Below are positions 1 to 52,911 of a stretch of DNA of 64,000 nt, in pieces. Origin of the DNA: Eledone cirrhosa (Eukaryota); the NCBI GenBank assembly GCA_964016885.1, contig OZ024740.1:18848001-18912000 (forward strand). The letters run 5' to 3'. The position numbers and the translations under genes are program-made. The notes under the pieces are model-generated. The model did no database searches. It was given only the letters and a program-made list of their open reading frames with translations, and had not been told where the DNA came from. Within the stretch, counting starts at the first letter, position 1; every line of letters starts with the position of its first letter.

Positions 1-85
1 AACATATAATTCAACCTTATTTACATATTCATTTGCATACTCATCCTAAAAGTTTGAAAAATCCGTTCTTTAATCCAAGGAAAAT

Positions 86-1049
86 TCAACTTTTTAGCCC
101 AGCTAATGATCTAAAAAGTCTTGCACAGAGTCGGCAACCAAAACATTCACTGGGAATAGTCGGCTGTGGTTGGAGTTCGTGTACTTTTGCATGTCGCTTG
201 AGCCCTCCTGCTGATTTACATTCTCTACCACATGCTTGGCAAGCATGATGAGTAGCATCTCCAACGGCAGCCTGGTAGTCAACCACTGGTCTAACTTTAT
301 GACTGCGAAGATGACTTTCGAGTCCAGCTTTGCTTAGGCAGAGTCTCGCACAGACGTTGCATGTCAGCACCATAGCAGGACCCTCGCCGTCTGGAAGTGC
401 AACAGCAATGTCCTTCCTCACATCCCGCTTTACTTTCTCGTATGCGATTCGAGATGCCTCAAAGGCAACTTGCCCCTCATATACAGTCTTTCTCCATTTA
501 TTACGATCAACAGCAACATTTTCCCATGTATCAGCAGAGATGTTAGCGTCTTCAAAGAGCCTTTCAACGAATCCTTATACCTCTTTTTTTGGTTTATGTG
601 GCGGTCGTTTTCCTTTAACTAACTCTCCATAAAAGAGTTGTTTTTGTATTCTAGAATCCTTCATCCTGGCAAGGTGACCACTCCAACGGAGTCGTTGCTT
701 AAGCACAAGAGCTTCTATACTGTCACACATAGAGCTTTCCAAAATCTCGATATCACTGATGTAGTCCCTCCAGTGAACGCCATGGATCCGTCTGAGACAC
801 ATCTGATGGAAACGCTCCAATTGTTTAAGGTGGTGTCGATATGGGACCCAGGTCTCGCAGGCATAAAGAAGAGAAGAGAGCACACACCTTTACCTTTGTC
901 TTCTTGCATATGTCTCGCCGACCCCAGAGTCGCCTTTCTAGCTTTCCGAAAGCATCACTTGCTTTCCTCATCCTAAGTGAGATTTCACTATCAAGGTTGC
1001 TGTATCGATTGACAGTGCTTCCCAGGTAGACAAACTGATCAACCACTCC
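86..1049 (-). mobile_element. RTE LINE 3' fragment (RT thumb and C2H2 region), same family as 7681-12133, 3'UTR missing
   Basis: ORFs 825..1103, 575..883 and 86..421 are collinear with the 10456..11640 protein ([19 protein letters not shown], CxxC..H..H); frameshifted. Confidence 0.93.
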
Positions 1050-1443
1050 AATAATAATAATTTTTCTGCTTTTGGCACAGATCCAGCGACTGCCCCAGCG
1101 CATTACTGGTGCTCTCTTTTGTTGACTCCGTGGGGATGAAAGGCAAGGTTGACCTCGTCGGGACTTGAGCTCGGAGCGTGGAGAGCCATAGCTCTATGCT
1201 GTAAAACAATTATAATAATACTGAACTGTAACACGAACGGCTTCAACTATACGAACTCTTGAAAGTCAACAGTTGACATAATCTTGTAATCTTGTATCAG
1301 TAATGACGGTAATATATATATATATATATATGTGTTTGTGTAAGTGAGTAGCGTGTGTGTGTTTGTTTGTATGTATGAGTGTTGGTGTGCGCGTGCGTAT
1401 GTATGTGTGTGTATGTCGTACGTATAAGTGTCAATAATTGGGA
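1050..1443. repeat. Second copy of the segment upstream of the full RTE (7292-7640), containing a tRNA-SINE fragment on the - strand
   Basis: Collinear with 7292-7640; that copy lacks about 47 bp between two CGTGG microhomologies. Confidence 0.85.
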
Positions 1444-1446
1444 CAT

Positions 1447-3455
1447 ACATACATACATACATTCATATAGAGAGGATTGCAGCGTCTTCACAGACGATTG
1501 CCGTCTCTTAATGATTCTTCGTTATCATCCCATCTGTGACCATGACTTCGTAGTGGACTTTGTAGACCAGCTGTAGATCTGCATGGTTTACTAGACAGGT
1601 GACAGAAGAGAGTTGTGCTTTCCACAGGAGCCGTGGGTCACCCTGTGGGACACAATCTTTATGTACCACCATGTGTTTTTTAGTTCGGAACTACACACTT
1701 TGTTGTATATCACGCACGTTGTTTCGCCAGGTCTTTGTTGTGGGTGGTTATCCTTTCATGAGACTTCAGGTGATTAGCATAACCAGCCTTTGAGAGGAGT
1801 ACACACTGACAGAAATTGCATGTCCAACTACTGATGACTTCATCAAGACTGAGCGCAGCCCTTCCGGAGCTGACGCTTCATTTGTTTATGTTCTAGACGA
1901 CATTCCTCAAACGTTTTGTAACTGCCCTTAATGCGCCTTCTCCATTCAGCCGTATTTAGAGCTATCTTCTCCCAGTTGTCTATATCAAATGCCAGGTTTT
2001 TGAGATTGTTCTTGATGCTGATCTTTTGCCCCCTTTTCGGTTTGGGTTGAGGTCTTTTTCTAAGATGGAGCTCACCGTAAAACAGTTGTTCCAGAATCCT
2101 ACTTTCTTTCATGCGGACGATATGTCCTGTCCAACGCATTTGAGAAGATGTTACTTAATGCTAGGACATTCTACTTTGATAAGAACATGGATGTCAGGAG
2201 TTCTGTCTTGCCACTTCATGTTGAATATGTTCCTTAAACATTTCTGCTGAAAATCACCCAAGCAATTTGGTGTGTTTACGGAATAGTGTCCAGGTTTCGG
2301 TGGAGTATAAAAGAGCAGATAGAACACATGATCTATACACACACACCTTGGTATTGTTGGTAATGTTGTGATTTGCCCAAACTCTCTTTTACTATTTTCC
2401 GAAGGCAACAGAGGCCTTTTGGATGCGTAGATGTATTTCAGCATCCAAGGAGCCATCATTTGACAGTATGCTACCAAAGTAGATAAATCCGTCTACTACT
2501 CCCAACCTGGTTCCATCAACCATTATATTGGGTTCAGTATATGGTTCTCCAGGAGCAGGGGTAAACATTACTTTGGACTTTTTAAGGCTGATTGTAAGCC
2601 CAAGTGCTGCACACGAGGATGAGAAATGGTCCATAATGTGTTCCATGTCAGCTTCTGTGTGTGCTAGGAAGTCAGCGTCGTCAGCGTAGAGAAGTTCTCT
2701 GGTCAGAGCTTGGCATTAAACCTTATTAAGCTGAAAACCTTTCCAGTAGTTCTGAACAGTAAGAGAAAGCCCCTGTCACAATCATGGAAAGCATATGAGA
2801 GCAAGGCAGCAAAGAAGATGGAGAAAGGTGTAGGAGCAGGAATATCACTTGCTTTACCCCGTTGTCAATTGGGATTTCCCCAGATAGTTGACCATTGAAG
2901 ATAACTTGAGCTTTTATATTTCTGTGCAGCTGCTTTAGCATACTCACAAACTTAGATCGACATCCCAGTTTTCCAAGTATTATCCAGAGTACATCTCTGT
3001 TAACTGTGTCAAAGGTCTTCGTTAGGTCAACAAAGACTTGATATAGGGAGACACTGCTCAATGCGTTTTTCTTGTATTTGTCTTACAGAGAAAATTATGG
3101 CAACTGTTCCTTTGCCTCCTCTAAAACCACTCTGTGATTCTGGGATAGCTATATGACAGATATCCTCCTCCAGTCTGTTGAGCAAAAGTCTTGTGAGAAC
3201 CTTGCCAACAGCTTCAAACAAAATGTTGCCATGGTAATCACCACATATCGATTTTTCACCTTTGCCTTTGTATAATGATAACAGAATACCGTTGATCCAG
3301 TCTTGCGGAACCGGAGTCCCATTCCAGCAATCAGTGAGGAAGTTGCTTATTGTTTCTGTTACATTATCACTATCGACATTCAGCAGTTCTACTGGAATAC
3401 CATCTGGACCTTGTGCCTTGCCAGAGTTAACCTGCTTGACTGTTAGCTTTATTTC
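1447..3455 (-). mobile_element. 5'-truncated degenerate RTE LINE (second family) with C2H2 remnants and (ATGT)n tail
   Basis: ORFs 3027..3533 (GKAQGPDGIP, SQSGFR), 2726..3061 (FVDLTKTFD), 2392..2646, 1843..2139 (RWTGHIVRM); YADD at about 2677-2688; (CATA)n at both ends. Confidence 0.92.
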
Positions 3456-3539
3456 ATACATACATACATACATACATACATACATACATACATACATACA
3501 TACATACATACATACATACATACATACATACATACATAC

Positions 3540-4837
3540 GAAGCTTCTACATCAACAGTGACATAGACCGCCTTTACTTGAAACGTAAGCAGGGAGGCAG
3601 AGGCCTAACATCAGTCCAGACATCATTTGAATGTCGCATCATATCTCTCCGACAACATCTACGAACCTCGAAGCGTAGGAGCCCGCTTCTCGAGCAAGTC
3701 TGTCTGCATGAAACAGATAAGATCATGAGAGTTGGGAAGGAACTCCTCGAGAGATATTCCCTGTGTGATAATCAAAAACTCGCAACCAGGGAAGTCGGTC
3801 AGCAGTATTGCAGTGAATCCATGGATGAAAAACTGCATACTTATCAGCAAAAAATCAGGCATGGATATGTTGCCAGGAAGCTCCAGAGTGAGAGTAATAT
3901 AGATAAGGAAAGTAGTCTATCTTGGAACAACAACCGCTATATTGGCTCCCACTTTGAAGGATACGCTTTTGCAATCCAAGAACAGGAAATTAACACGAAA
4001 TACCTGATTCATAAAAGAGATAGGGATGCAGCAAAATACCTAGATGTGATAACAAGTGCAGACTCTGCAGAACTAACATCGAAGATATCACCCATGTCAA
4101 CAGCAGCTGTCAAAAGATGTCATCGCGGTACTATCTAGCTATGAGGCATGATGTAGTGGCCAAAACACTGTACAATGCAATCCGTAGAAAAGATAGCCCT
4201 GATAATAAACACTTTAAAAGCTACAGCAATGTGGAAGACATCCATATACATATGAAAGAGTACTGGTGGAATGTTCCAGTAAAAAACACAATAAAATGCA
4301 GGCATAACAGACCATATATAATGATATGGGACAGGGAGAAGAAGGCATGCACAGTAGTGGAAATTAGCTGCCCAGCAGATGCCAATATAATATCAAAGGA
4401 AAATGTTTATGCAGAACTGATGAGAAATCTGCAGATACTCTACCCTGATTACACCTTCAGATTTATGCCTGTGATTATTGGGGCACTGGGGTATGTTAGT
4501 AACTGCCTCAATACAAATCTTGAGAAGCTAGGCTTCACAGGAACAGAAAGAACACAACTAGTTAGGAAACTACAAGTACAATCCATTAATGGAACAGTAA
4601 AAATATGTAAAACATTCAAAACTTTTGCATCTAATAACTGCATATACACATGTACTGATACAAAGCATATACACATGCACACATACAACTCAAAACATCC
4701 ACATCCACACATACAATAACGTCCATATCTACACATGCATGCATACATACATATCTACCTAGTTGATGTGTAAATTCCAATGAGAGAGTCTTGTGTCTAT
4801 GCTAGTGAAACTTTGTGAAATTATAAAACCAGAAGAA
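3540..4837 (+). mobile_element. 5'-truncated R4/Dong-like RLE non-LTR retrotransposon, family 1
   Basis: RLYLKRKQGGRGL, AIQEQEI, CCHC knuckle, RHD and RP(D)I..WD..VVEISCP endonuclease motifs; flanked by (CATA)n. Confidence 0.88.
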
Positions 4838-6211: not shown

Positions 6212-6990
6212 TTTTCTCTTTCTCTTAATTTCGAGTATATTTTTTTGACCGGCCACCTTCCTGGTGGCAAGGTTGTAAAAGAAAAGAAATTGTCATCCCT
6301 TGAATCGCAAGAATGTTTTGCAAATTTTGAAGGTGCCAGCTATCGCAGCCATTTGTAATCTATGAATTAGGGAGCTGCGCTTTTTGTCCACAAATCCAAG
6401 TTCAGTCATACTTTGGTCCAAGCGGGTTGGTATATAACCCGTAGCACCAATAATGATGGGTATGAAGTTAAAGGTGTATCTTGGATACTGGATTTGTAAA
6501 CTCCTCATCAATGGTCCGTAGATGTCCTCCTTCTCCTGTATTTTTCTGACAACGTTTACATCAAGTGGGCAGCTGATCTCCACAACAGAACACGTTTTCA
6601 ATGTGTGGTCCCAAACTACAATATCAGGCCGGTTGTGCTTTAATTTGGTGGCAGTTTTTATTTTCAGGTTCCACCAGTATTCCTTAGTGCCATCTGTCTC
6701 AATATATTCTTCCTCGTTTGTTGTTAATTTTGTTTTCCGAAGTGCGTTCCAGATGGTTCTAGCTATCCCATCGTGTCTCATGGGGAGGTAGTAGCGAGAT
6801 GACATTCTTTCGCAGCTGGCAACAATGTGGCTTACATCCTCGATCTTTGTTTTACATAGCCTACATTTATTGTCAGCTGCTGGCCCTCCTCTTTTGTGCA
6901 GCAGATATTTGGTAGGGAGTTCTTGTTCCTGTATTGCATAGAGATATCCCTCAAGGTGTGATGTCATAAACTTGTCGGAACTCCATGCCA
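6212..6990 (-). mobile_element. 5'-truncated R4/Dong-like element, family 2
   Basis: ORF 6293..6991: CRLC..H....C, RHD, RPDIVVWD, VVEISCP; short 3'UTR; (ATGT)n on both sides. Confidence 0.9.
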
Positions 6991-7114
6991 TGTATGTATG
7001 TATGTATGTATGTATGTGTGTATGTATGTATGTATGTATGTATGTAGGTATGTATGTATTTGTATGTATGTATGTATGTATGTATGTATGTAGGTATGTA
7101 TGTATGTATGTATG

Positions 7115-7220: not shown

Positions 7221-7645
7221 CACATGTATGTATGTATGTATGTATGTATGTATGTATGTATGTATGTATGTTGCGACCTTAAGAACAACTTTAATAATAA
7301 TTTTTCTGCTTTTGGCACGGACCCAGCGACTGGCCAGCGCATCACTGGTACTCTCTTTTGTTGACTCCGTGGAGAGCCATAACTCTATGCTGTAAAGCAA
7401 TTATAGTAATACTGGACTGTAATACGATCGGCTTCAACTATACAAACTCTTGAAAGTCAACAGTTGACATAATCTGGTAATCTTGTATCAGTAATGACGG
7501 TAATATATATATATATATGTGTGTGTGTGCGTGTAAGTGAGTAGAGTAGCGTGTGTGTGTGTTTGTTGTGTGTGTGAGTGTTGCTGTGTGCACGCATATG
7601 TATGCGTGTGTGTGTATGTCGTACGTATAAGTGTCAATAAGTAAT

Positions 7646-7677
<32 letters not shown>

Positions 7678-7680
7678 TTT

Positions 7681-7984
7681 TGCGCGGGGACATAGAAATA
7701 ATCGGGCTGGATGCCCGATCGCGCAGTTAAACCACTGGGAGTGAAGAACCCCTAGCCCATGTCAGGGTATTCTTCTAGGAGAAGGCATCTCAGGAAACTG
7801 GGTTAACTCCGATATAAAACCTGCGGCTCAGTAGTTACCGATGATGTTGATCTTTTCTTCTTTTCGGGTTATAGCTACTGTCGCTCAGAGAGTGGGATTG
7901 GTTCAGTGCACAGTCTTTCCTCACTTTAAAAATATTCGTCACGCACAGGCATTGCACGAGTGCATTAATAATTATTAATAGTGT

Positions 7985-8022
<38 letters not shown>

Positions 8023-8027
8023 TATTA

Positions 8028-8066
<39 letters not shown>

Positions 8067-11000
8067 CCAATTCAATGATGTTCCAGAACAATGTAAACGA
8101 GATAATTGCCAATTTGGGTTCTGGAACAAAAAGGATCATTGGCAATAAGGGCAGGGGCCCCAAGTTATCACAACCTGGGCCCGCCCGTCATCGTGCCATT
8201 GTAATAGAGCCAAACAGGGCATTTAGTCTTGGCTGCTGGAACGTACGGACGCTGCTTGACGGGGATTCTTTGGAGCGTCCTGAACGAAGGACCGCTCTTG
8301 TTGCGAAGGAGCTTCGACGTTACGATCTTGACATCGTGGCTTTGTCTGAGACGAGGTTAGCTGGAGATGGTCATCTTACGGAATTTTGTGGAGAATATAC
8401 ATTCTTCTGGAAAGGAAGAGATGAAGGAACCAGAAGAGAGGCTGGGGTAGGATTTGCTGTTAAGACTGTACTGGTGAATAAATTAGAAGAATTCCCAGTG
8501 GGGATTAGTGAGCGTCTTATGTCCATGAGAGTTCCGCTGGACAAGGGAAGATATGCTACCCTGGTGAGTGTGTATGCTCCAACTATGAATTCTGTCGATG
8601 AAGAAAAACTGTCCTTTTACCATGCCTTGAAAGGTGTTTTAAGAAATATCCCTCAGGCAGACAAAGTCATCGTGCTTGGTGACTTTAATGCTAGAGTGGG
8701 TAGGGATTTTAACACATGGAATGTAATCGGAAGGCATGGGGTGGGAAAGTGTAACAGCAATGGTATGCTCTTGCTGCAGATGTGTGAGGAGCTGGATCTG
8801 TGTGTTACCAACACCATGTTCCAACAAAAGAACAAATTCAAGACCACATGGATGCATCCTGCATCTAAGGAATGGCATCTTTTGGACTACGTCCTAGTCA
8901 GGATGCGTGACAGACAGGATGTGCAGTGTGTTCGTGTTCTTCGTGGAGCTGAGTGCTGGACGGACCACCGCCTGGTACGCGCAAAAGTGAATCTAATCAC
9001 CAAACGTAAAATCCGGGCTCCTGGTGTTACCCTGCCCAAAAGATTGAATGCTGCTCGTCTTAAGGATAAAAATGTGTAGAGGACATTGGAAGAAGAGATG
9101 CAGGCTGCAGATCTTGGTGAGGATTGGCCGACCCTTAAAAAGTCGGTTTATGATGTAGGCAGACGTGTTCTGGGATTGGTGCAGAGAAAACATCAGGACT
9201 GGTTTAATGAGAAAGATGTGCATATAGATGACTTGTTGGCTGATAGGAGGCGCGCTCTGTCACGCTACTTGACGGCAAAACCACAGGAGAGGAATACGTT
9301 GCATGAGGAGCTCAGGGATGTAAAATCACGTGTTAGGCGGAGTCTTTCTCAGATGAAGGATCAGTGGTGGAGTGAGAAGGCTGGTGAGATACAAACTGCG
9401 TCTGATTGCAATAACACAAAGCTGTTGTACAGTCTCTTGCGTGAGGTTTATGGACCGTCTTCTTCTCTGGTGACACCGATTCGCAGCAGGGATGGCAAAG
9501 AACTTCTTCGTGACTCACAGGGAATTCTACGAAGGTGGCGAGAGCACTTTGATGATCTTTTGAATCAGCCGTCTGTCGTCAGTGAAGATTTCCTCAATCT
9601 CATTCCGGAAAGTCCTGTGAAAGTAGCTCTCGCAGAACCTCCGACACTTGTGGAGGTTGCAGTGGCTATTTCGAAGCTGAACAGTGGAAGATCTCCAGGT
9701 ATGGATGGCATACATGCTGAGCTCCTACAATATGGTGGTGAGAGACTCCTGCAACATCTTCACTCTCTGTTTGGAAGGATATGGGCTAATGAATCCGTGC
9801 CTGAGGACTGGAGAGATGCAGTAATGGTGGTCTTGTACAAGGGAAAGGGTAACAGGAATGATTGTGGGAACTACAGAGGTATATCATTGCTTTCTGTCGT
9901 GGGGAAAGTTTTATGTAGGGTGCTTCTGGACCGTCTGCTGACACACATTGCAGATTGTGTCCTTCCTGAAAGTCAATCTGGTTTTCGTGTTGGACGCGGC
10001 ACTACTGATATGATCTTCTCAGCTAGACAGCTCCAGGAGAAGTGCATTGAACAGGGCTTGGATCTGTATCAGGTTTTTGTCGATCTGACAAAGGCTTTCG
10101 ATACTGTCAACAGAGATGCATTATGGAAGGTTCTCCAGAAACTTGGTTGCCCTGATAAGTTCCTTGCTTTAGTTAGGTCTTTCCATGACGACATGAAGGC
10201 TTGGGTTAATGTCGGAGGTAACATGTCGGAGCCTATCTCAGTAAAAAATGGAGTGAAACAGGGGGATATTCCAGCACCGACCCTGTTTGCCATATACTTT
10301 GCAATGGTTTTTTTTTTTTTTTTTTTTTTTTCTGTATTGCATTCAGGAATTGCGAGCATGGTGTTTACATCCGATATCGAACCTCAGGCAGCATATTTAA
10401 CATCAGGCGCTTTGCTGCGAAGACAAAAGTATTTACATCAGTCATAAGAGACCTCTTGTATGCAGATGATTGCGATCTTGTAGCGCACACAGAGATTGAT
10501 ATGCAGCACATTTTGAATGTATTTTCTGACGCTTGCACTGCCCTGGGTTTGACTGTCAGTCTCAAGAAAACCGTCGTCATGTACCAACCTGCACCTGGTA
10601 GGCAGTACACTGAACCAAACATCTATGTGTATGGCAAACGACTTGGAGTGGTTGATCAGTTTGTCTACCTGGGAAGCACTGTCAATCGATACGGCAACCT
10701 TGACAGTGAAATCTCACTTAGGATTAGGAAAGCAAGTGATGCTTTCGGAAAGCTAGAAAGGCGACTCTGGGGTCGGCGAGACATATGCAGGAGGACAAAG
10801 GTAAGGGTGTACAGGGCATGTGTACTCTCTTGTCTTCTTTATGCCTGCGAGACCTGGGTCACATATCGACGCCACCTTAAGCAATTGGAGCGTTTCCATC
10901 AGATGTGTCTCAGACGGATACATGGCGTTCACTGGAGGGACCACATCAGTGATGTCGAGATTTTGGAAAGCTCTATGTGTGACAGTATAGAAGCTCTTGT

Positions 11001-11648
11001 GCTTAGGCAGCGACTCCGTTGGAGTGGTCACCTTGCCAGGATGAAGGATTCTAGAATACCAAAACAACTCTTCTATGGAGAGTTGGTTAAAGGAAAACGA
11101 CCGCCACATAAACCAAAAAAGAGGTATAAGGATTCCTTGAAGGCCTCTCTGAAAGACGCTAACATCTCTGCTGATACATGGGAAAATATTGCTGCTGATC
11201 GTAGTAAATGGAGAAAGACTGTATATGAGGGAAAAGTTGCCTTTGAGGCATCTCGAATCGCACACGAGAAAGTAAGGCGGGACGTGAGGAAGGGTATTGC
11301 TGTTGCACTTCCAGACGGCGAGGGTCCTCCTATGTTTCTGACATGCAGCGTCTGTGCGAGACTCTGCCTGAGCAAAACTGGACTCGAAAGTCATCTTCGC
11401 AGTCATAAAGTAAGACCAGTGGTTGACTACCAGGCTGCTGTTGGAGATGCTACTCATCATGCTTGCCAAACATGTGGTAGAGAATGTAAATCAGCAGGAG
11501 GACTCAAGCGACATGCAAAAGTACACGAACTCCAACCACAGCCGACTATTCCCAGTAAATGTTTTGGTTGCCGACTCTGTGCAAGACATTTTAGATCATT
11601 GGCTGGGCTAAAAAGCCACATTCGATCGCAGCACTGTTAGTTGCTATC

Positions 11649-11686
<38 letters not shown>

Positions 11687-11765
11687 GCTTATGTGCGTGC
11701 GTGTGTGTGTATATATATATGAATATGTATATTATTATTGTTGTTGTCGTTATTATTATTATTGC

Positions 11766-11820
<55 letters not shown>

Positions 11821-11942
11821 GTTATTAATGTATGTGTGTATATATGTGTGAGTGTATGTGTATGTATGTGTGTGTGTATATATGTATGTATGTGTATGTA
11901 TGTGTGTGTGTATATATATGTGTATGTATATATATGTGTATA

Positions 11943-11975
<33 letters not shown>

Positions 11976-12007
11976 CTTTTCCCTTTTTTTTTTTTTTTTT
12001 TTTTTAA

Positions 12008-12052
<45 letters not shown>

Positions 12053-12133
12053 TTTTTTTTTTATTTTTTTTTTTTTTTATTTTTTTTATTGTGCAATGGC
12101 CATACTCGATAACGAGGGGGCAGCCATCATCAT
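7681..12133 (+). mobile_element. Near full-length RTE-clade LINE (5'UTR, single ORF, 3'UTR)
   Basis: 5'UTR motif TTCTAGGAGAAGG; APE+RT+C2H2 ORF; terminal hairpin CTCG-ATAA-CGAG followed by (ATGT)n. Confidence 0.96.
8075..11640 (+). pseudogene. RTE ORF: AP endonuclease, reverse transcriptase, three C2H2 zinc fingers; in-frame TAG at 9077-9079 and frameshift at T25 (10308-10332)
   Basis: WNVRTL, LSETR, GDFNA, LDY, TDH (APE); NYRGISLL, FVDLTKAFD, GVKQG, YADD (RT); three CxxC-x12-H-x3/4-H motifs. Confidence 0.95.
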
Positions 12134-12621: not shown

Positions 12622-12713
12622 TTGGTGCTACTGGTAACATGTATCCCAGTACAACCTATCAGGGCTATGGATATAAAGTAGTGGCCGTACTCGAAAACGA
12701 GGTGGCAGCCACC
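12622..12713 (+). mobile_element. Minimal (about 92 bp) derivative of non-autonomous RTE family B
   Basis: About 37 nt of the 5' leader fused to the last about 48 nt of the 17091-17701 element. Confidence 0.75.
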
Positions 12714-16436: not shown

Positions 16437-17027
16437 TATCTCTTTCTCTTAATTTCGAGTATATTTTTTTGACCGGCCGCCTTCCTGGTGGCAAGGTTGT
16501 AAAAGAAAAGAAATTGTCATCCCTTGAATCGCAAGAATGTTTTGCAAATTTTGAATGTTTTGCAAATTTGTAGACTATGAATTAGGGAGCTGCGCTTTTT
16601 GTCCGCAAATCCAAGTTCAGTCATACTTTGGTCCAAGCGGGTTGGTATATAACCCGTAGCTCCAATAATGATGGGTATGAAGCTAAAGGTGTATCTTGGA
16701 TACTGGATTTGTAAACTCCTCATCAATGGTCCGTTGATGTCCTCCTTCTCCTGTATTTTTCTGACAACGTTTACATCAAGTGGGCAGCTGATCTCCACAA
16801 CAGAACACGTTTTCAATGTGTGGTCCCAAACAACAATATCAGGCCGGTTGTGCTTTAATTTGGTGGCAGTTTTTATTTTCAGGTTCCACCAGTATTCCTT
16901 AGTGCCATCTGTCTCAATATATTCTTCCTCGTTTGTTGTTAATTTTGTTTTCCGAAGTGCGTTCCAGATGGTTCTAGCTATCCCATCGTGTCTCATGGGG
17001 AGGTAGTAGCGAGATGACATTCTTTCG
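16437..17027 (-). mobile_element. R4-like family 2, 5'-truncated
   Basis: Near-identical to 6215-6812 (RHD, RPDI, VEISCP). Confidence 0.9.
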
Positions 17028-17090
17028 TATGTATGTATGTATGTATGTATGTATGTATGTATGTATGTATGTATGTATGTATGTATGTAT

Positions 17091-17701
17091 TGTGTCAGGT
17101 CACCAGTTGGTGCTATTGGTAACATGTATCCCAGTACAACCTGTCTCATGGTCGGGTCGTTGGCGACTAAACTGGCAACCCCACCAAGGTTTCTTGGTGA
17201 GGAGGGTGGCTTTGGACATCCTGCAGGACTAAAAACAAAACCTGTCAAAAGGCAAAGGGGCTCTTAAGAGTCAATAGCCATCCAAAATCACCGGGAGAGA
17301 TGACCCCTTAACCTTTGTCAAGGCAGAATTCTAGGAGAAGGAAAACTCTTATATAACACCTGCAACCCTGATGGTATCCAATGATGTTGACTTGTTCTTC
17401 TTTTTGGTAAATATCATCTTAGTTAAGAGAGTGGGACTGGCTTTGTGCAGTGCCTTTGCTCACTATAAAAGCTTCACAGCAAAGGCATTGCTTTATATCT
17501 GGAGATCTCTCTGCACTTGTCGTCACATGGTACCATGGGCCCAGCACTATGTGTCAATAATTGTCACAAGTGTAGTGTTTGTACCAGAGTTTTCAAGTCG
17601 CTGGCTGGACTAAAAAGTCACACTCGTTCAGCGCATTGGTAGGGGTTCTCCTACATGGATATAAAGTAGTGGCCGTACTCGAAAACGAGTTGGCAGCCAC
17701 C
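17091..17701 (+). mobile_element. Full-length non-autonomous bipartite RTE derivative, family B (about 610 bp)
   Basis: RTE-type 5'UTR blocks, last C2H2 remnant, terminal hairpin CTCG-AAAA-CGAG and (ATGT)n; several further copies in the window. Confidence 0.9.
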
Positions 17702-17736: not shown

Positions 17737-18265
17737 GTCACTCTTGAGTGCTACTGGTAACATGTAACCTAGTACAACCTGTCGCATGGTCGGGTCGTCG
17801 GTGACTAAACCGGCAATCCCACCAAGTTTACTTGGTGAGGAGGGGATTTTGGACACCCTGCAGGACAAAAAACAAAACCTGACAAAGGGCGGAAGAACTT
17901 ATAAGAGTCAACGACCATCCGAAAGTGTTTAAATATATATATACACATGTACCATGCGGTTAAACCACTGGGAGTGAAGGACCCCTAGCCTTTGTCAGGG
18001 CATTCTTCTAGGAGAAGGCAACTCAGGAAACTGGGATAACTCCGATATAAAACCTGCGGCTCAGTAGTTACTGATGATGTTGATCTTTACTTCTTTTCTG
18101 GTTATAGCTACTGTCTCTCAGAGAGTGGGACTGGCTCAGAGCACAGTCTTTCCTCACTTTAAAAATTATCTTCACGCACAGGCATTGCACGATTTAATTA
18201 ATTAATAATTAGTAATAATGGTATATCGTGCAATGGCCATACTCGATAACGAGCGGGCAGCCATC
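17737..18265 (+). mobile_element. Non-autonomous bipartite RTE derivative, family A (leader, 5'UTR and 3' end of the 7681 element)
   Basis: 17956-18192 matches 7722-7959; about 18226-18265 matches 12089-12128; ORF absent. Confidence 0.88.
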
Positions 18266-21319: not shown

Positions 21320-22870
21320 AATGGAATAAACAGATTTGTTAATAAATGTATACATGGTGGTGTCATACCCAAAGACTGGTGTAGCAGTATTCTCATAAAT
21401 TGCTACAAAGGCAAAGGGAATGCTCTAGAGAGGAGCAATTATAGGAGCATAAAGCTGATGGATCAGGTTATGAAAGTGGCAGAGAGAATATTAACGCAAC
21501 TGATTAGAGAAAAGGTCAAATTAGATGAGATGTAGTTTGGTTTTATGCCTCGGAAAAGTACAATAGATGCCCTCTTCTTAGTGAAGCAACTACAAGAGAG
21601 GTTCTTAGAGAACAATAATCTACTATACATAGCTTTTGTTGACCTAGAGAAGGCCTTTGATAGGGTCCCCGATCTGTCATCCGGTGGTCCCTAAGGAAAC
21701 TAGGTGTAGATGAATGGCTTGTGAGGACAGTGCAAGCTATGTACAGGGGTGCTGTCAGTAAAGTGATAATAGGAATGGAGGTTAGTGAGGGATTCCAGAT
21801 ACAAGTAGGTGTACATCAGGGTTCGGTCCTCAGCCCGCTCTTGTTCATTATAGTCCTCCAAGCCATAACAGAGGAGTTTAAGACTGGATGCCCATAAGAA
21901 CTTCTCTATGCTGATGATCTGGTTCTTATAGCAGAATAAGTAGAGGAGCTAGAGAATAAATTCTGGCTATGGAAACAGCAGTTGGAATCAAGAGGCGTGA
22001 GAGTGAACATAGCTAAAACAAAAGTGTTGATAACTAGAAGAGAGGACAATACTCTGATTCCATCAGGGAAATGGCCATGTTCGATATGTAGGAAAGGAAC
22101 TGGCATAAATTCCATAAAAATGTACGCAATGCAGATCTTGGGCACACAAGAGATGTAGTGGGATAGCAGGCAAACTAACAGGTAGGGAAAACTACGTATG
22201 CAGTAGATGTACAGGGAAAGTAGGTTCTATAGAAGTGGTTGATAGCTTCCGGTACCTAGGTGATCATATTAGCATGGGAGCGGGGGAGGGGTGGGCGAGG
22301 CCATAGTATCTAGAATAAGGACGGGTTGGAAGAAGTCTAGGGAGCTGCTTCCTCTGTTGACAAAGAAGGGTTTCTTCCTGCGTACGAAAGGACGGTTATA
22401 TGATGCCTGTGTGAGATGCGCGATGCTGCATTGTAGTGAGACATGGGCAGCAACTGCAGAAGATATGCGACTGCTGGAGAGAAATGAAGCAAGTATGCTC
22501 CGTTAGATGTGCAATGTCAATGTGCGTGAACGACCAAGCATAGACGAATTGAGAAAGAAACTGGGTATAAGAGGGATAAGTTGTAGTGTGCAGGCGAGAA
22601 GGCTGAGATGGTATGGACATGTGATGCGCATGGAGGATGACCGCTGGGTAAAGAAGTGCCAAGAAATCCCAGTAGAAGGAAGACGCAGTAGAGGTAGACC
22701 ACGAAAAACATGGGCGGAGGTGGTGAGAGAAGACCTCAGATCGCTGAAACTCACGGAGGAGATAACGAAGGACCGTGACAAGTGGAGAGATGCTGTGCTG
22801 AATAGGACCCATCCCACTCTTGCAAGCATGGAAAAGCGGACGTAAAATGATGATGATGATGATGATGATA
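21320..22870 (+). mobile_element. Degenerate 5'-truncated RTE LINE (third family) with (GAT)n tail
   Basis: YKGKG..NYRSIKL, FVDLEKAFD, GVHQGSVLSPLLF, YADD, RLRWYGHVMR, RGRPRKTW; tail at 22847-22870. Confidence 0.92.
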
Positions 22871-27029: not shown

Positions 27030-27226
27030 GTGTCAGGTCGCTCTCGAGTGCTACTGGTAACATGTAAACCAGTACAACCTGTCTCATGGTCGGGTCGTCG
27101 GAGACTAAACCGGCAACCCCGCCAAGTTTACTTGATGAGGAGGGTGATATTTGGACACCTTGCGGGGTGAAATACAAGACCCGGCAAAGGGCGGGAGGAA
27201 CTCAGCAGAATCAACGGCCATCCAAA
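27030..27226 (+). mobile_element. Isolated 5' leader of the RTE-derived families
   Basis: Matches 17737-17921 and 17091-17285. Confidence 0.75.
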
Positions 27227-28145: not shown

Positions 28146-28195
28146 TGTATGTATGTATGTATGTATGTATGTATGTATGTATGTATGTATGTATC

Positions 28196-28650
28196 AAAGG
28201 GCAAAGGAGCTCTTAAGAGTCAATGGCCATCCAAAATCACCGGGAGAGATGACCCCTTAGCCTTTGTCAAGGCAGAATTCTAGGAGAAGGAAAACTCTGA
28301 TATAACACCTGCAACCCTGATGGTATCCAATGATGTTGACTTGTTCTTCTTTTTGGTAAATATCATCTTGGTTAAGAGAGTGGGACTGGCTTTGTGCAGT
28401 GCCTTTGCTCACTATAAAAGCTTCACGGCACAGGCATTGCTTTATATCTGGAGATCTCTCTGCACTTGTCGTCACATGGTACCATGGGCCCAGCTGTATG
28501 TGTCAATAATTGTCACAAGTGTAGTGTTTGTACCAGAGTTTTCAAGTCACTGGCTGGACTAAAAAGTCACACTCGTTCAGCGCATCGGTAGGGGTTCTCC
28601 TACATGGATATAAAGTAGTGGCCGTACTCGAAAACGAGTTGGCAGCCACC
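28196..28650 (+). mobile_element. Non-autonomous RTE family B, 5'-truncated
   Basis: Matches about 17246-17701; (ATGT)n on both sides. Confidence 0.9.
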
Positions 28651-29126: not shown

Positions 29127-30149
29127 ATTCTTGAGTTCTACTGGTAACCCTGTATAACTTGTCGCATGGTCGGGTCGTCGGTTATTAAACCGGCATGGTG
29201 ATTTTGAACACCCTGCAAGACAAAACACACAACCTGACAAAAGGCGGCAGAACTCATAAGAATCAACGGCCATCCAAAAATGTGTAAATATGTATATAAC
29301 GTATGCATGTGTATATATGTATATATGTATATACCTATATATTGTTTGCTTGATATGCTTGTAAATCTATCCTTTGCCATACAGTAATTATATATGCCTA
29401 GTAGCATTGCTTGTTTACTACCCAGCTGTCCTGTATATGCCTAACGCATTTGCACTCTCTATACGCTTGCATATGTACTGCTAGTGTCCTCGTTTTACGA
29501 GTAACTTTCTACCTTAATGCCTCTTTAATTATTATACTATTCCTTTGTAAACTCTGTCGCATGCATTCCACTCTGTAAATACAAAACTGTTGATGACAAC
29601 ATTAATATCCATGTATCTATATGATTGTTCAGTTGAATAGGAAGTTAATTATATGTCCAAACGTTGCTAGTACTCCGATGATTCCAAACGAAAGTTTCGA
29701 AGAAACGATTGTCAGCAATAAAATTATTTGAACATAGTTTTGATTATTGTGTAATTTATATGTATATGTGTATATACATGTATGCATGTGTATGAATATG
29801 CGCGGTGACATAGAAATAATCGGGCATGATACCTGATCGCGTGTTTAAACCACTGGGAGTGAAGGAACCCTCGCTTTTGTCAGGGCATTCTTCTAGGAGA
29901 AGGCAACTCAGGAATCTGGGATAACTCCGATATAAAACCTGCGGCTCAGTAGTTACCGATGATGTTGATCTTTTCTTCTTTTCAGGTTATAGCAACTGTC
30001 GCAGAAAGAGTGGGATTGGCTCAGTGCACAGTCTTTCCTCACTTTAAAAAAAATCGTCACGCACAGGCATTGCACGATAGAATTAATTGATAATTATTAT
30101 TAATGTTATATCGTGCAAATGCCATACTCGATATCAAGCGGACAGCCAT
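29127..30149 (+). mobile_element. Non-autonomous RTE family A, split by a probable Penelope-type insertion (about 29340-29760, degenerate hammerhead at 29672-29716)
   Basis: Leader at 29127-29280; core 29799-30149 matches 7681-7959 plus 12089-12128. Confidence 0.78.
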
Positions 30150-30214: not shown

Positions 30215-31717
30215 TTCTTCTGGTTTTATAATTTCACAAAGTTTTACCAATAGAAAGAGAGTCGGTTTCTAACATAGACACAAGACTCTCTCATTGGAAT
30301 TTACACAACATCAACTAGGTAGATATGTATGTATGCATGTGTAGATATGGATGTTATTGTATGTGTGGATGTGGATGTTTTGAGTTGTATGTGTGCATGT
30401 GTATATGCTTTGGATCTGTACATGTGTATATGCAGTTATTAGATGCAAAATTTTTGGAATGTTTTACATATTTTTACTGTTCCATTAATGGATTGTACTT
30501 GTAATTTCCTAACTAGTTGTGTTCTTTCTGTTCCTGTGAAGCCTAGCTTCTCAAGATTTGTATTGAGGTAGTTACTAACATATCCCAGTGCCCCAATAAT
30601 CACAGGCATAAATCTGAAGGTGTAATCAGGGTGGAGTATCTACAGATTTCTCATCAGTTCTGCATAAATATTCTCGTTTTCACTAATCTTTGATATTATA
30701 TTGGCATCTGCTGGGCAGCTAATTTCCACTACTGTGCATGTTTTCTTCTCCCTGTTCCATATCATAATATCTGGTCTGTTATGCCTGCATTTTATTTGGG
30801 TTTTTACTGGAACATTCCACCAGTACTCTTTCATATTATGTACATGGATGTCTTCCACATTGTTGTAGCTTTTAATGTGTTTATTATCGGAGCTATCTTT
30901 TTTACGAACTGCATTGTACAGTGTTTTGGCCACTACATCATGCCTCATAGGTAGATAGTACCGCGATGACATCTTTGGGCAGCTGCTGATGACATGGGTG
31001 ATATCCTCGATGTTAGTTCTGCAGAGTCTGCACTTGTTATCACATTTAAGTGTTTTGCCTGCATCCCTATCTCTTTTGTGAATTTAGTATTTCGTGCTAA
31101 TCTCCTGTTCTTGTATTGCAAAAGCGTATCCTTCAAAGTGGCAGCCAATATAGCGGTTGTTGGTCCAAGATAGACTACTTTCCTTATCTATATTACTCTC
31201 ACTTTGGAGCTTCCTGGCAACATATCCATGCATGATTTTTTGCTGATAGGCATGCAGTTTTTCATCCATGGATTCACTGCGATACTGCTGAGCGACATCC
31301 CTGGGTGTGAGTTTTTGATTATCACACAGGGAATATCTCTCAAGGAGTTCCTTCCCAACTCTCATGATCTTATCTGTTTCATGCAGATAGACTTGCTCGA
31401 GAAGCGGGCTCCTACGCTTCGAGGTTTGTAGATGTTGTCGGAGAAATATGATGCGACATTCAAATGTTGTCTGGACTGATGTTAGGCCTCTGCCTCCCTG
31501 CTTACGTTTCAAGTAAAGGCGGTCTATGTCACTGTTGATGTGGAAGTTTCCGGTGTTGTTCAGTATTTTTCGAGTTCCAACATCAACTGCTCGGATTTCA
31601 TCTATCGTCCAATTGAGTATTCCAAATGTTGGTGTTAGGACAGGCACAGCAACACATTGTGAGCCACTGTTTTGTTTTGCGCAGAGAATTGCGATGACCA
31701 GATCTTTCTTAATCGGG
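30215..31717 (-). mobile_element. 5'-truncated R4/Dong-like element, family 1
   Basis: ORFs 31084..31647 and 30640..30972 (RHD, RPDI, VVEISCPAD); collinear with 3540-4837. Confidence 0.92.
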
Positions 31718-31896
31718 TAGAATTAATTGATAATTATTATTAATGTTATATCGTGCAAATGCCATACTCGATATCAAGCGGACAGCCATCATGTATGTAT
31801 GTATGTATGTATGTATGTATGTATGTATGTATGTATGTATGTATGTATGTATGTATGTATGTATGTATGTATGTCAGGTCTGTATGTATGTATGTA

Positions 31897-34770: not shown

Positions 34771-34971
34771 TGCATAAATGCATTCGGATGACCTCGTTGA
34801 GCCCCAGAAAGTATATAATGCATGATAAATGAGCAAGATGGTGGGGTGTTCTAAGACGATTAGTAGGTCCCCACTTGTGTGTGGGTAACCCTGAATGTTA
34901 TGTTTGATATATCTTGTGTTAATGGTTGTATGTTTTATATAGATTTGATACTTATTTTATGTATGTATGTG

Positions 34972-35390
34972 AGGTCGCTCTTCAGCGCTACAGGTAACAT
35001 GTAACCCAGTACAAGCTGTACATGGTCGGGGAGTCGGTGACTAAACCGGCAACCCCACCAAGCCTGCTTGATGATTTTGGACACCTTGAGGGATGAAAAA
35101 CAAAACCGGTCAAAGGGCGGAGGAACTCAAAAGAGTATAAAACCTGCGACTCTGTTTGCATCCAATGATGTAGACCAGTTCTTCTTTTTGGGCAAATGCA
35201 TTCAATGCTCGAATGGGATTAGCCCCGAGCAAAACCTTTAAAAAATCTTCAAGCACAGGCGTCGCTTGATATGTGACATTTTTGCGATGCCTGGTATTGC
35301 GGGCCATAGGCAAGTCCCTAGCAGGACTAAAAAGCCACATCCGAATCAAGTGATGCCATTACACGAAATCGAGTTGCATCCATCATCATC
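34972..35390 (+). mobile_element. Non-autonomous RTE derivative, diverged family C
   Basis: Leader, 5'UTR blocks, KSLAGLKSHIR remnant, hairpin and (CAT)n/(ATGT) tail. Confidence 0.78.
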
Positions 35391-39866: not shown

Positions 39867-40018
39867 CGGGGTAACACATTATTGTTATAGGTAGTCCACT
39901 TAGGTGTAGTCCAGTTATGGTACTCCGCTTATGGTACTCTAGACCTACCAGTTCAATATCTCTTCTTCGGAAGGAAGTAAAGCAAGCTATTTAGAACACT
40001 GGTTTAACCGCTTTACTT

Positions 40019-42394
40019 CCGTTTTATAATCCCTCCGATAAATCATTCGACCTGCAACGAGTCCACGCCACGACTTTACCATTTAACAAACGCACGCAGT
40101 TGCCGTCGCAGGTCGATGAACAAACAGAAGCACAATTTAGTATAGCTAAATCCGAACTTAGAAATATTATAGAACAGTATAACAAGAAGCATAATAGAAT
40201 AGAGGCCCAGCCACTGGGAGAAAAATCTGCAAATGGCTTGCGTAAGCTCATGCAGCGCTCACGTAATGGAGAGATAGCATGCTTTCCAACAGACAAGTCT
40301 GGCAGAATGTCGGTTGACAGCCTGCCAAACTACATCCAGGCAATGCAACCCCACATCACTAACACAAGAGAGGTAACACCACAGGAGCATGAGGATAGAG
40401 AAAAAGCCCTCAATGCCCATATGGTGATGTGGACGAATATAATGCAACCCAACAAAAGGACTGCCAACAACTTTCAGGCCTGGAACAATGACGTGCCGGC
40501 GTTGTATGGGCTTCGAAAAGACCATAAAACGGGCTGTGACCCTGTCGCGGGACCACCAACACGGCCAGTCTGTGGAGCTAACATTGCTAGTAACTACAGA
40601 CTGTCCTACTTCCTCTCGCTGATCATACGCCCCATCATTGAGATGTCCCCAGATGTATGTGACAGCACGGAGGACCTCCTCAGCAGAATCGGCGTGAGTA
40701 ACCGATCTGGGGACCTAACAAACTGCATAATAGGCAGTATGGATGTTGTGTCCCTGTATCCATCTATTGACGTGGATTTTGCTGTGGAGAAATGCGTAGA
40801 AATGATCAGCGAGAGCAAGGTTGAATTCCGTGGGATTGATACCAGTGAGCTGGGACTCCTACTTAAACTTACCTATAGTAATGATTATCTAGATACATAT
40901 GACCTTAGCAACCTGTGCCCTACAAGACCAGCAAGAGGCAGACCACCTACCATTACCTCAATGGCCAAGAAAACCCACACAGATAGATGGAACGGGTGAA
41001 CCAGAGCCATACGGACACCCGAAAACCACGATGAACTGAAGAAAATGATTGCACATGCGGTAGGGGCCAGCATAAAATTAACCCTTAAGGAACATATGTT
41101 CAAATTTAATGGAAAAACATATGCCCAAGAGGAAGGAGCAGCCATTGGTGTTAGCATTGCAGGCGACATAGCTAACTTATTCATGGTATGGTGGGACAGT
41201 AGACTTAAACTTAAACTTAAAGAACAATTAGAAGACAGCTTAACCCTGATAATGTACTCCCGCTACGTAGATGATATAAACATCGTAGTTAAGACACCCC
41301 CACTAGAGAACAGTCAGGAACTAGAGAAAAACACAATGGAAAGCATCCAGCAAATAGCAAACTCCATCCACCAGAGCATTAGAGTTACTATAGACTACCC
41401 AAGTAGACACCCCAACCATCGATTACCTGTACTAGACACAGAGCTCTGGTTAGATACCATTAACAACCAAAAACAAATCCTCCATTTCCATTATGCCAAA
41501 CCCATGACTTCCAAACATCTGATCCACCGAAACTCGGCCATTTCGGACCATACCAAAATCAACATACTGATTGCGGATTTGGTACGGGTGATGAGAAATG
41601 TGTCCCGCATGTGCAACCCCGAAGAACTAGAGAGACACATACAACACTTCATCCACCGTATGCAGTTCTCTGGCTACAATCAGAGAGATAGAATCAGAGT
41701 GTATAGAGGAGCCAGAACCAAATGGGAACAAATGGTAAATAATGACATAAATGGGACCTGCCCCTTGTATAGGAGCAAATTTTGGAATAGAATAGAAAGA
41801 ACTAGGAACAAGGCCAATAGAATAAACTCATGGTATGATAGCAATAAATACCAGAGTGTAATGTTCATCAATACAACCCCTAGAGGCGAACTAGCCTACA
41901 AATTTAGAAGGGCCCTAAATAAACATAAACTCAATATTAAGATAGTAGAAAGACCAGGTACCTCCGTAAAAACACTTATTAGCAAGACATACCCGTTCCA
42001 AAGACCCTCATGTATAGATAAGAAATGTATAACCTGTAAAATAAGCCCCCATATTAACTGTAAAACTAGAAATGTAGTGTATAGCATAAGATGTACTGAA
42101 GGACAATGTAGAAACAAAAATATAGTGTACATAGGTGAGACAGCTCGTAGTATAGGGGAACGGATAAATGAACACTGGCGAGACCTTCAAGATAATAAAG
42201 AATCATCTGTACTCTACCAACATGCTAAGATAGAACACAAGGGTAAATTAGAGAACATAGAAATAAAAATAGAATCCACACACAGTAAAGATGCAACGTT
42301 TAGGCAAATTACAGAGGCAGTAAGTATAAAAGAATTACAACCAACATTAAATAGAAAATATGAGTGGAACAGCAACATCACAACTTACAATTAA
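40019..42394 (+). pseudogene. PLE RT/GIY-YIG ORF interrupted only by one in-frame TGA (40997-40999)
   Basis: ORFs 40100..40999 and 41045..42394 share a frame: TDKSG, KDHK, RPV, SMDVVSLYPSI, GAAIG, RYVDD, LPVLD, VVYSIRC..YIGETARS..R..EH, E..LN. Confidence 0.9.
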
Positions 42395-47656: not shown

Positions 47657-47978
47657 GATATATATATGTATATATATATATATATATCTCCTTATAATAT
47701 ATAACTACCAATTTCTCTGTCTGTCTCTGTCCGACAGTGGAAACACGTGCGCGCGTGGTTGCTATCTCTCTCTCTCTCCAGCTATCCCTCTCTTTTAGTC
47801 TGTCTGTTTCTCTCACTCTCACTCTTTCTCTTTGTAACACACTAACATTCCTCCCCTCTATCGCTGTGACGAATGGGGAGATGGAGGAGGAGGAGGAGGA
47901 GGAGGAGAGAGTCACTTCGTCACTTCACCTCTGCTTTTCTTTCTTTCCCCTATCACTCCCTCATTACGTACAGACATT

Positions 47979-48172
47979 AGGGCGGTGGATGGGCAGAATC
48001 TGTAGAGAGTCGGACACCATGCTTCATAGCATGGAGTTACGTCCCTTTACGGTCTGAGTTCAAATACCGCCGAGGTTAACTTTGTCTTTCATCCTCACGG
48101 GGTCGATAAAATAAAGTACCAGTAATGTACTGGGTAATTGCTGGCCTTGTGCCAAAAGTAGAAACAATTATT
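47979..48172 (+). mobile_element. tRNA-derived SINE
   Basis: Head, box B and shared body. Confidence 0.88.
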
Positions 48173-50554: not shown

Positions 50555-51500
50555 CGACCTCTGGCCAACCACACATCAGTGCAACATGGCCTCAGACAGA
50601 TTAGCGCACCATCTCGATCAGCACACCCTCGCATGTTTTCGCTCGGCCTCGCAACCCCACAGCGGTGCATGGCTCAATGACTTACCCTCCTTTTCAACTG
50701 ACATGCAGCTAGATAATGATAACCTGCGCATTGGGGTTTCCCTGATCTCGGCCTCCGGATCTGTGAGTTACACAAATGCCACTGCGGTCCACCGTAGACA
50801 CTTTCGGCCTTCACCCGCTGTCGTATCGCTACAGTGCCGGACGCCTTCCACGCCCTGCTGCTCTCAATGAGGTCATAAAGCATGGCTTGGATGCTGCAGG
50901 CTTCCTCTCCCAGATCAGGTTGGTGGGGCTGGACCAAGGGGACGGCAAAAGGCCAGAAGGCACGGCCATCTTCCCGTTCCGCGGTGGCAAACCCCTCATC
51001 TGGGATGTCACATGCAGCGACACATTCCCCAGCGGCAACCTGGTGCAGCCTGCGACTAAACCAGGCTCTGCTGCACTTGGGACTGAGGAGGGCAAACTCT
51101 CCAAATATCGGTCGCTCTCCGACAAGTTTGTGGTCGAGCCCATAGCAGTGGAGACCTCTGGTGTCATTGGCCCTAGGGCCACATCCCTACTCATCACTAT
51201 CGACACAAAGTTGACAACCTGCAGAGGTGAGCCTCGCGAGCTGGAATGGCTCTTCCAGCGTATATTCCTCAGCATCCTCCGGAGAAACGCCTTCTTTACT
51301 CTGTCCGTCGAAGCCTCGGGGTGGCCAGCGAGTGGGCCTCCGTTTGTTCATTATTAAGAGATGGGAAGATAGGGAGAGAGGGAGGTGGTTATAGTGGGAA
51401 TTTTGTTTCTATGTGTTCGGACCTGGTATACACGTGTCTGTGATTTATTTTTATTTTTCATTCATGTCTCTATATTAACAAGCTTTTGTCTATCATTAAA
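50555..51500 (+). mobile_element. CRE-clade RLE non-LTR retrotransposon, 3' fragment
   Basis: HSGAWL..LP, GKRPEG...P...GKPLIWDVTCSDT, PIAVETSG, QRI...I.R.NA. Confidence 0.85.
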
Positions 51501-51602
51501 AATCGAATCCAAATAGGAATTTTCCAGAGATTTTTTTACAAGTTACCACAGTATATTTCGTTTTGACCTTAGTAGCATTATTTTCTATTGTGATTGTGCT
51601 TA

Positions 51603-51796
51603 AGGGCGGTGGATTGGCAGTGTCGGTAGAGGGTCGGGCGTCATGCTTTGCAGCAAAGAGTTACGGCCTTTTATGATCTGAATTCAAATCCCGCCGAGGT
51701 TAAATTTGCCCTTCATCCTTACGGGGTCGATAAAATAATGTACCAGTAATACACTGGGATAATTGCTGGCCTTGTGCCAATAGTAGAAACAATTAT
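51603..51796 (+). mobile_element. tRNA-derived SINE (3' fragments also at 51995-52038, 52398-52493, 55245-55300)
   Basis: Head, box B and shared body. Confidence 0.88.
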
Positions 51797-52911
51797 TTTC
51801 TATTATCCTTAAATAGGTGGCTACATAAGCTATCTTTTAAAAGACTATGTTTTATCAATCATGCTTCTAAATATACACATTAAATTCCTTCATTTAAATT
51901 CGAACACGCTCTTAATAAAACAGCAGAGTTTATTTATCTATACATGGGAAAGAGATCTTTTAAAAAAATATATGTAGAATACATGATTATGTTTCAGTGG
52001 GTAATTGCTGGCCTTGTGCCTAAAGTAGAAACAATTATTTTATCGGCGTCTTTTTTTTATCGTGTTTTTTTTTATCGGCGTTTATTTTTTATTTTCCCCA
52101 CTTGCCGAACAAGTTAGGGGAAACCCAGCATACATAGGTAGATGTACTTCTTTTCTTTTTTCCCTTTATCTCTTCTTCTCACTTCCTTCCACTCTCCCTC
52201 CTCTTCCTTTTCTTTTTTCCTCTTTCGCTTACCCTGAGGCAGCCCATCGGGCTTTTGTAGCCTAAGTACCCCCACCCCAGTAAATTCCATATAGCATTGG
52301 CTGAAAACGCAATACCAGCTAAAAATATAGCAGCTGTTTTAGACTCTAGTTTTTTTTATTATCTTTTATTTCATTTTAAGATATTATTATTTTTATTTAA
52401 CTTTGCCTTTCATCCTTACGGGGTCGATAAAATAAAGTACCAGTAATACACTGTGTAATTGCTGGCCTTGTGCCGAAAGTAAAAACAATTATTATTTTTA
52501 TTTATTATTTTTTTAATTTTTTATTTCAATTTATTAAATTTTGAATTTTATAACTTCCCTCTCTCAGATTCCTCCAGAATTCTTTTTCGCCTGCTTTCTA
52601 CCTAGCCTAATTTCATCCACACTCCTTAGAATTTGCTGTATAGAATTCACTTTCAACGATTGACCGACTCCACCCACTCCCCTATTGTTCTACAGGCAAG
52701 TTCAGCCACCCCCACCTCCCACCCACCGCCATGAAAGATTTAATTGTGTTTACAAGAAATTTTGACTAATCCTTTTGACAACTACAATCTTCCCATATAA
52801 GGAATTACCCCTTGAAAAGTTCGGCTATTTATTACCACGCTAAAATTCTAATTTAGTCCAAAAATAGCCGTCGAAATGGCTTGAGCTCTGCCGTCGGGGT
52901 CTTGAATATTT

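Follow-up and report, generated by a model that had tools for sequence, protein, structure and literature searches.

Covarying complementary arms at the two ends of RTE retrotransposons in Eledone cirrhosa and other animals: a candidate composite recognition structure

Long interspersed nuclear elements (LINEs) of the RTE clade have given rise to bipartite derivatives, among them Bov-A, MAR4/WALLSI3, RTESINE1/2, AfroSINE and the AviRTE short interspersed nuclear elements (SINEs), in which a piece of the 5′ untranslated region (UTR) is joined to the 3′ end by internal deletion (PMC5786205, PMC4844689; these and the papers below are cited for the portions we consulted). Such derivatives are said to arise “for unknown reasons”, with transcription or ribozyme requirements suggested (PMC5786205). 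Here we analyze a 64,000-nucleotide stretch of the Eledone cirrhosa genome (assembly GCA_964016885.1, contig OZ024740.1, positions 18,848,001 to 18,912,000, forward strand; hereafter the window), which carries an RTE-clade element and three families of bipartite derivatives, A, B and C. Both the element and its derivatives are of already known kinds, and by eye its 5′UTR domain is visibly homologous to RTE-1_PSi, RTE-3_AMi, WALLSI1 and AviRTE SINE sequences in the published supplements, ManaSINE1 being among those it resembles. Unlike in the window, the consulted portions of PMC5786205 and PMC4844689 give no base pairing between the two parts. In the window, an arm in the 5′UTR is complementary to an arm just before the terminal 3′ hairpin, with the open reading frame (ORF) lying between them, and we refer to the paired arms as the clasp.

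In flavivirus genome cyclization and in the telomerase RNA core, a structured 5′ element is brought to a 3′ initiation site and a pseudoknot lies next to a long-range helix, although their enzymes and origins are different and the likeness is one of analogy only. Similarly, the CYC5-CYC3 pairing of Ty1 is a long-range 5′-3′ interaction beside a 5′ pseudoknot that is described as required for cyclization, and the 5′ and 3′ ends of Ty1 suffice for a minimal element supplied in trans (PMC7969010). Covarying long-range 5′-3′ complementarity of this type is present in the RTEs tested here, but we claim no homology, given that Ty1 is a long terminal repeat (LTR) element with transfer RNA priming and strand transfer, whereas RTEs use target priming and have neither LTRs nor a primer-binding site. 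Closer to RTE, ZfL2-1/2 (PMC4176376) and plant RTE/Au elements (PMC6007223) likewise show a terminal hairpin that carries compensatory changes and is followed by a microsatellite tail, and the proteins of stringent LINEs bind the 3′ stem-loop (PMC4176376). The signals described in those papers are local to the 3′ end, whereas part of the signal predicted here comes from the 5′UTR, kilobases away. The short internally deleted elements (SIDEs) of R2 also keep both ends, but their 5′ part is a self-folding, self-cleaving ribozyme, and no 5′-3′ pairing appeared in the consulted portion of PMC3414825.

In the window element, 10 of 11 positions pair between 7949-7959 and 12089-12099 (nine Watson-Crick pairs and one G-U), a bulged G extends the helix by outer GG/CC pairs, and the pairing ends 6 nt before the terminal hairpin (Table 1). 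The first-pass annotation of the window, which proposed this helix, also quoted arms for the three bipartite families. All of the quoted sequences are present, and their locations are right except for family A, whose arms were assigned to 17737, a separate head-like piece, and lie instead within the copy listed in Table 1. Its statement that the same positions pair with different sequences in A, B and C held in an alignment of seven bipartite copies (two A, two B and three C), in which 4 of 11 clasp pairs show double-sided change and 94.8% of clasp cells pair. For the clasp and terminal hairpin together, 94.3% pair in this alignment, compared with 29-45% after sliding by one to three columns; the covariation score was reached by 0 of 500 shuffles, and the count of double-changed pairs by 125 of 500. 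The clasp helix appears in both the minimum-energy and the centroid folds of bipartite A, B and C (z = -3.7, -1.9 and -2.6), and a fourth bipartite family, H, also keeps it.

To extend the comparison beyond this genome, an alignment of 59 relatives was used to fetch 61 metagenome and 16 prokaryote-genome loci. The ORF is complete in 34 of these 77 outside loci (0 of the 16 prokaryote-genome contigs), which together with 6 loci from this genome gave 40; a search of viral contigs returned no relatives. Sixteen were dropped: five near-duplicates (L135, L142, L150, D_L105 and D2_L102), eight with a missing or short end (L119, L129, L131, L147, L156, L158, L167 and L172) and three without a recognizable 5′ anchor (L132, L164 and L170). 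The resulting test set holds 24 non-redundant full-length RTEs, 4 from this genome and 20 from metagenome contigs, with ORF identity of at most 71.5% outside duplicate pairs. As a side observation, the RTE-like sequences in prokaryote genome assemblies (L174-L189) are most likely eukaryotic contamination. The 5′ anchor was the conserved CAC..AA motif (a pseudo-anchor in a neighboring motif for L140, L157 and L169) and for the 3′ anchor we took the hairpin that precedes the tail, from scripted lists in 20 elements and by hand in 4; a fully automatic 3′ rule mis-picked several hairpins and was not used. Anchors were set without regard to complementarity, but after the sequences had been seen.

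The covariation that had been claimed for the families of the window extends to these 24 divergent autonomous elements, in which own partners pair far better than swapped ones. The pairing energy was -24.8 kcal/mol for own and -14.6 kcal/mol for swapped partners (0 of 200,000 permutations), and three neighboring control windows were not significant (3921, 8448 and 17734 of 20,000). A Watson-Crick-only score gave 7.96 for own versus 4.87 for swapped partners (again 0 of 200,000 permutations) and was at least 7 in 19/24 own pairs versus 33/552 swapped pairs. The best run begins 14-22 nt past the 5′ anchor in 20/24 elements and stops 5-7 nt short of the hairpin in 18/24; the arm sequences are unrelated among the elements, and yet the same register is complementary across 3.5-4 kb. 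Relatedness among the elements, by making swapped pairs more similar, acts against the contrast seen. Within 4 kb, matches of 8-10 bp are common, and the anchors were partly hand-set, as described, so one may ask whether we are dealing with chance complementarity picked by eye. We regard this as most improbable, as the window had already supplied the register when the 20 outside loci were retrieved, and the swapped-partner and control-window tests reject chance and refute it at their level. We are therefore highly confident that the complementarity is real and selected, and the covarying clasp reaches across animal RTE subgroups. As to what it does, we lean, from sequence comparison, towards an 8-12 base clasp that would join the RNA ends, pairing the 5′UTR domain with the bases before the 3′ hairpin, as a structure recognized by the RTE protein. 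The first-pass annotation had called the pairing a composite reverse transcriptase recognition signal; the pairing itself is borne out by the 24 RTEs and by autonomous family B, and for the function we infer no more than a best reading.

The autonomous parent of bipartite A is the type of the window element, and that of bipartite B is represented by L230-L239. Loss of the pairing in the autonomous partner of B would have spoken against the first-pass proposal, but both arms are kept, about 3.6 kb apart, in all 8 two-ended loci of the 10 fetched. Families D (L094, L105) and D2 (L102, L104), which like the 3′ part of autonomous B (L106) were found by protein search with a diverged RTE fragment and from fetched stretches, have different arm sequences in the same place. 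For family C, no full-length autonomous element was found in this genome: ORF-linked 3′ ends exist and no ORF-linked 5′UTR was located. Among 30 family C loci viewed, most have complementary arms and several are 5′-truncated. Variants shared among autonomous copies (left arm in L233-L235, L237 and L238; right arm at 12090 and in other family A copies) change a Watson-Crick pair to G-U rather than to a mismatch. In the contigs of run X2, no variant of at least 10% was seen in either family A arm, an observation too weak to be used.

Bipartite elements were detected 60 times in the fetched loci (42 B, 9 A, 6 C and 3 H), and both arms are retained in all four families despite different junctions. 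All of the junctions seen fall within the loop, those of family A no more than about 35 nt from the arms, and that of family B sits in a short shared motif, as might be seen if the clasp had some other role and its stem merely promoted deletion of the loop, both ends being kept as a mutational by-product. We nevertheless hold this to be decidedly unlikely as the whole explanation: in B and C the distance from junction to arm ranges from tens of bases to more than 100, the pairing persists with different letters in AviRTE SINEs of separate origin, and the conservation of pairing in autonomous elements is left unexplained. Deletion-promotion can also operate together with a role of the clasp in recognition. 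Separately, within bipartite family B a short open frame is kept at 28484-28593, ending in the last C2H2 finger of the parent ORF.

Although the clasp of the first-pass annotation stood, two features of its surroundings had been overlooked. First, the left arm follows a predicted, conserved 5′UTR hairpin, P1, with a likely pseudoknot directly ahead of the arm (Table 1). P1 scored 6.84 for own versus 5.88 for swapped partners (1 of 100,000 permutations, n = 22), and 3-7 bases of its loop are complementary to those immediately upstream of the left arm. For the pseudoknot the scores were 4.70 versus 4.05 (144 of 100,000 permutations; two controls not significant); the automatic register was misplaced in several rows, and per-column counts were not used. 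Because the windows for P1 and the pseudoknot were chosen after inspection, we claim the pseudoknot less strongly than the clasp. Second, in 15/24 elements the stop codon falls within or next to the right arm, 3-22 nt upstream of the hairpin; its frame was taken from the last aligned segment and is unreliable for L121, L140 and D_L094. A structured head was also seen ahead of families B and C and standing alone (17096-17240, 17737-17923, 27037-27226 and 34968-35129), and a related head opens the metagenome element L170. The head, which had no Rfam match, may represent a ribozyme or promoter. An Rfam scan of 7500-36000 at E ≤ 1 gave 100 matches, all below the gathering score and nearly all microRNA models on simple repeats, with no ribozyme.

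The position of the stop codon fits a different role, in which the clasp closes an RNA loop for translation, termination or stability of a microsatellite-tailed RNA and bipartite elements retain it as passengers or because it stabilizes them; some RTEs are, moreover, predicted to have self-cleaving 5′ ends (PMC5786205). We consider such a loop unlikely, given that the right arm of the window's family A element lies about 450 nt past the stop and that the helix is kept with changed letters in non-coding families, both in this genome and in vertebrates.

The vertebrate cases were among published sequences read by eye, without computation; misses were not scored systematically, and EbuSINE2 was unclear. 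In the supplement of PMC5786205, the BovB 5′UTR (769-824) ends in ACCCCATGAA and the BovB 3′ end (3769-3835) holds TTCATGGGGT, giving a 10 bp helix in which BovA2 has one A-T pair replaced by G-C, a double change. RTE-1_PSi and RTE-3_AMi, which are homologous to the element of the window, are distinguished by a T-A to A-T exchange within the helix, again a double change. A helix is likewise present at the 5′/3′ junction in MonoRep87A, WALLSI1, AFROSINE3, CoeSINE4, SepiaSINE and SINE2_Gav, and a hairpin-plus-loop pairing precedes it in BovB, CoeSINE4 and SINE2_Gav (same supplement). In two ManaSINE1 consensuses and GymnSINE the helix is retained and the letters differ (PMC4844689, supplement file 5). 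In the literature searched, no 5′-3′ pairing in an RTE is described, although older SINE papers, patents and figures could contain a junction hairpin; the covarying end-to-end clasp is thus probably newly described here.

A helix read for its shape should keep its pairing while its sequence drifts, at constant spacing between two conserved elements, which is what we see, and the retention of the helix in non-coding bipartite elements points to mobilization rather than translation; together these lead us to favor a composite template-recognition structure. In such a structure, the 5′UTR hairpin and pseudoknot would lie next to the clasp helix and the terminal hairpin as a single unit of the folded RNA, from which the ORF would loop out. 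This unit would place the microsatellite tail for target-primed reverse transcription, so that only RNAs with both ends would be good templates; internal deletions that remove the loop and spare both arms would yield efficient parasites, while 3′-only derivatives would not amplify. In elements with the stop codon inside the right arm, the clasp would be opened by a ribosome at termination, which could pass the RNA from translation to copying. In full-length RNA the folded unit would probably need protein, because naked folding rarely predicts the clasp.

We would like to note that a number of observations weigh against a recognition structure of this kind. Within its own element the window clasp ranks only 6 of 4500 diagonals, and a rival site with 10/11 pairs lies at 7903-7913; the window helix alone is thus not beyond chance, and the evidence is the covariation. 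Five of the 24 elements scored under 7 (D2_L104, L113, L123, L148 and L151). When seven dropped loci were re-tested, the best UTR site of L132 was in register and followed a BovB-like motif, L150 had 12 pairs, L147 had 8 pairs (at the contig start), and D_L105 and D2_L102 were weaker, but L164 and L170 had no in-register helix. Among whole elements the clasp is the right arm's best partner in only 7-8/24, and it appears in 1 of the 5 full-length minimum-energy folds that finished. Exact two-arm copies of family B number 22,331 and the head-plus-3′-only type (12622-12713) had 2 matches, with differing junctions, a contrast that speaks for recognition by both ends, but this arm-less count covered that one kind of derivative only. 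Plant SINEs that depend on RTE (TS, Au) are reported to have no more than the 3′ end in common with it (PMC3747384, PMC6007223, in the parts consulted), and some RTEs may thus do without the 5′ arm. Finally, G-U and A-C combinations within and beside the helices number 13 and 12, showing no sense-strand bias, and in a composition-controlled strand test the sense strand was better in 13/24 (p = 0.97), so that sequence alone does not establish that the RNA strand is the one that pairs.

These last results, and helices that are mostly pure Watson-Crick, such that either strand could pair, are what one would predict if the pairing acted on first-strand complementary DNA or in a late step (template jump, 5′ junction or second-strand synthesis). 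We judge a late role quite unlikely all the same. In this genome the sense strand pairs better in the four families (B, -37.4 versus -18.1), the left arm is inside the 5′UTR, hundreds of bases from the 5′ end, and the helix adjoins the terminal hairpin at fixed spacing. Returning to recognition of the template by both ends, the broader proposal that all animal RTEs split their recognition signal between the two RNA ends, with pseudoknot, clasp and 3′ hairpin forming a single structure that admits only intact RNAs and that a terminating ribosome opens, is one that we put forward tentatively, with somewhat more doubt than belief.

The window element was assigned to the RTE clade by its ORF layout (APE endonuclease then reverse transcriptase in one ORF, without a separate ORF1), its 3′ end of RTE type (a terminal hairpin and then a short microsatellite tail) and its 5′UTR likeness, the relatives found by protein search being unnamed or hypothetical. 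The Atlas top matches of its protein are “craniofacial development protein 2-like”, a name that we presume to be linked to the RTE endonuclease. In the window copy a stop at 9077-9079 and a frameshift in a T-run near 10307-10335 interrupt the ORF, and other copies hold intact frames of 1,200-1,240 aa; at least 40 identical copies of the 5′UTR are present in the genome (3.0 Gb). The element had been thought to start near 7685, but shared sequence begins near 7273, the upstream segment being common to 20 of 30 copies. Within this segment, 7273-7640 contains an antisense piece of a SINE family seen near 47976-48172, and a second 5′-truncated LINE copy at 83-1437(-) is joined to a segment resembling it. 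Inspection placed the SINE families near 47976 and 37967, together with the fragment at 21365-22797, outside the clasp structure as far as seen.

Other repeats were noted in passing. Fragments of another non-LTR family, which we take to be one with a restriction-like endonuclease motif, lie at 3440-4719, 6293-7114, 16517-17263 and 31084-31722, often nested with RTE pieces at (TATG)n, and 39995-42394 presumably holds a Penelope-like reverse transcriptase plus a GIY-YIG-type ORF. The copies of a further retroelement fragment at 50576-51807 and 58825-60001 are 93% identical. At fold-back junctions (62665-62913, L238 and L102), an inverted copy of an element's own 3′ end directly follows the element.

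Table 1. Positions in the window of the RTE-clade element, its predicted RNA structures and its bipartite derivatives
Feature	Position	Strand	Remarks
RTE-clade LINE copy, family A autonomous type	7273..12133	+	5′-truncated relative to the longest copies; ends in (CAT)n then (TATG)n
Single ORF: APE endonuclease, reverse transcriptase, three C2H2 fingers	8078..11640	+	
Conserved 5′UTR hairpin P1 (predicted)	7888..7927	+	7888-7896 with 7919-7927
Predicted pseudoknot	7906..7946	+	loop GTGC 7906-7909 with GCAC 7943-7946, directly ahead of left arm
Clasp left (5′UTR) arm	7948..7959	+	
Clasp right (3′UTR) arm	12089..12101	+	
Terminal hairpin CTCG-N4-CGAG	12105..12116	+	ahead of microsatellite tail
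Bipartite family A copy	17956..18264	+	arms 18181-18193 / 18226-18238; second copy about 29800-30149
Bipartite family B copy	28194..28650	+	arms 28433-28448 / 28607-28623
Further family B copies	near 16033, 17245, 32050, 43157(-), 46798(-)		
Bipartite family C copy	35120..35390	+	arms 35258-35270 / 35345-35357

RTE has given rise to bipartite SINEs repeatedly, in mammals, birds, reptiles, fish, insects and cephalopods, for a reason that one systematic study, in the portion consulted, left open (PMC5786205). A covarying 5′-3′ clasp offers a single testable explanation for why they keep both ends, and as a signal it would revise the usual picture in which stringent LINEs recognize only a local 3′ signal. 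It also bears on template design, since RTE-1_MD is in use as an RNA-templated gene-insertion tool whose templates carry both UTRs (PMC13708176, section 5.2) and whose UTRs were optimized empirically (PMC13708176). If true for all animal RTEs, the clasp would represent the first mechanism of genome cyclization in a retrotransposon without LTRs, and would supply both a reason for the repeated origin of bipartite SINEs from RTE and a design rule for RTE gene-writing templates.

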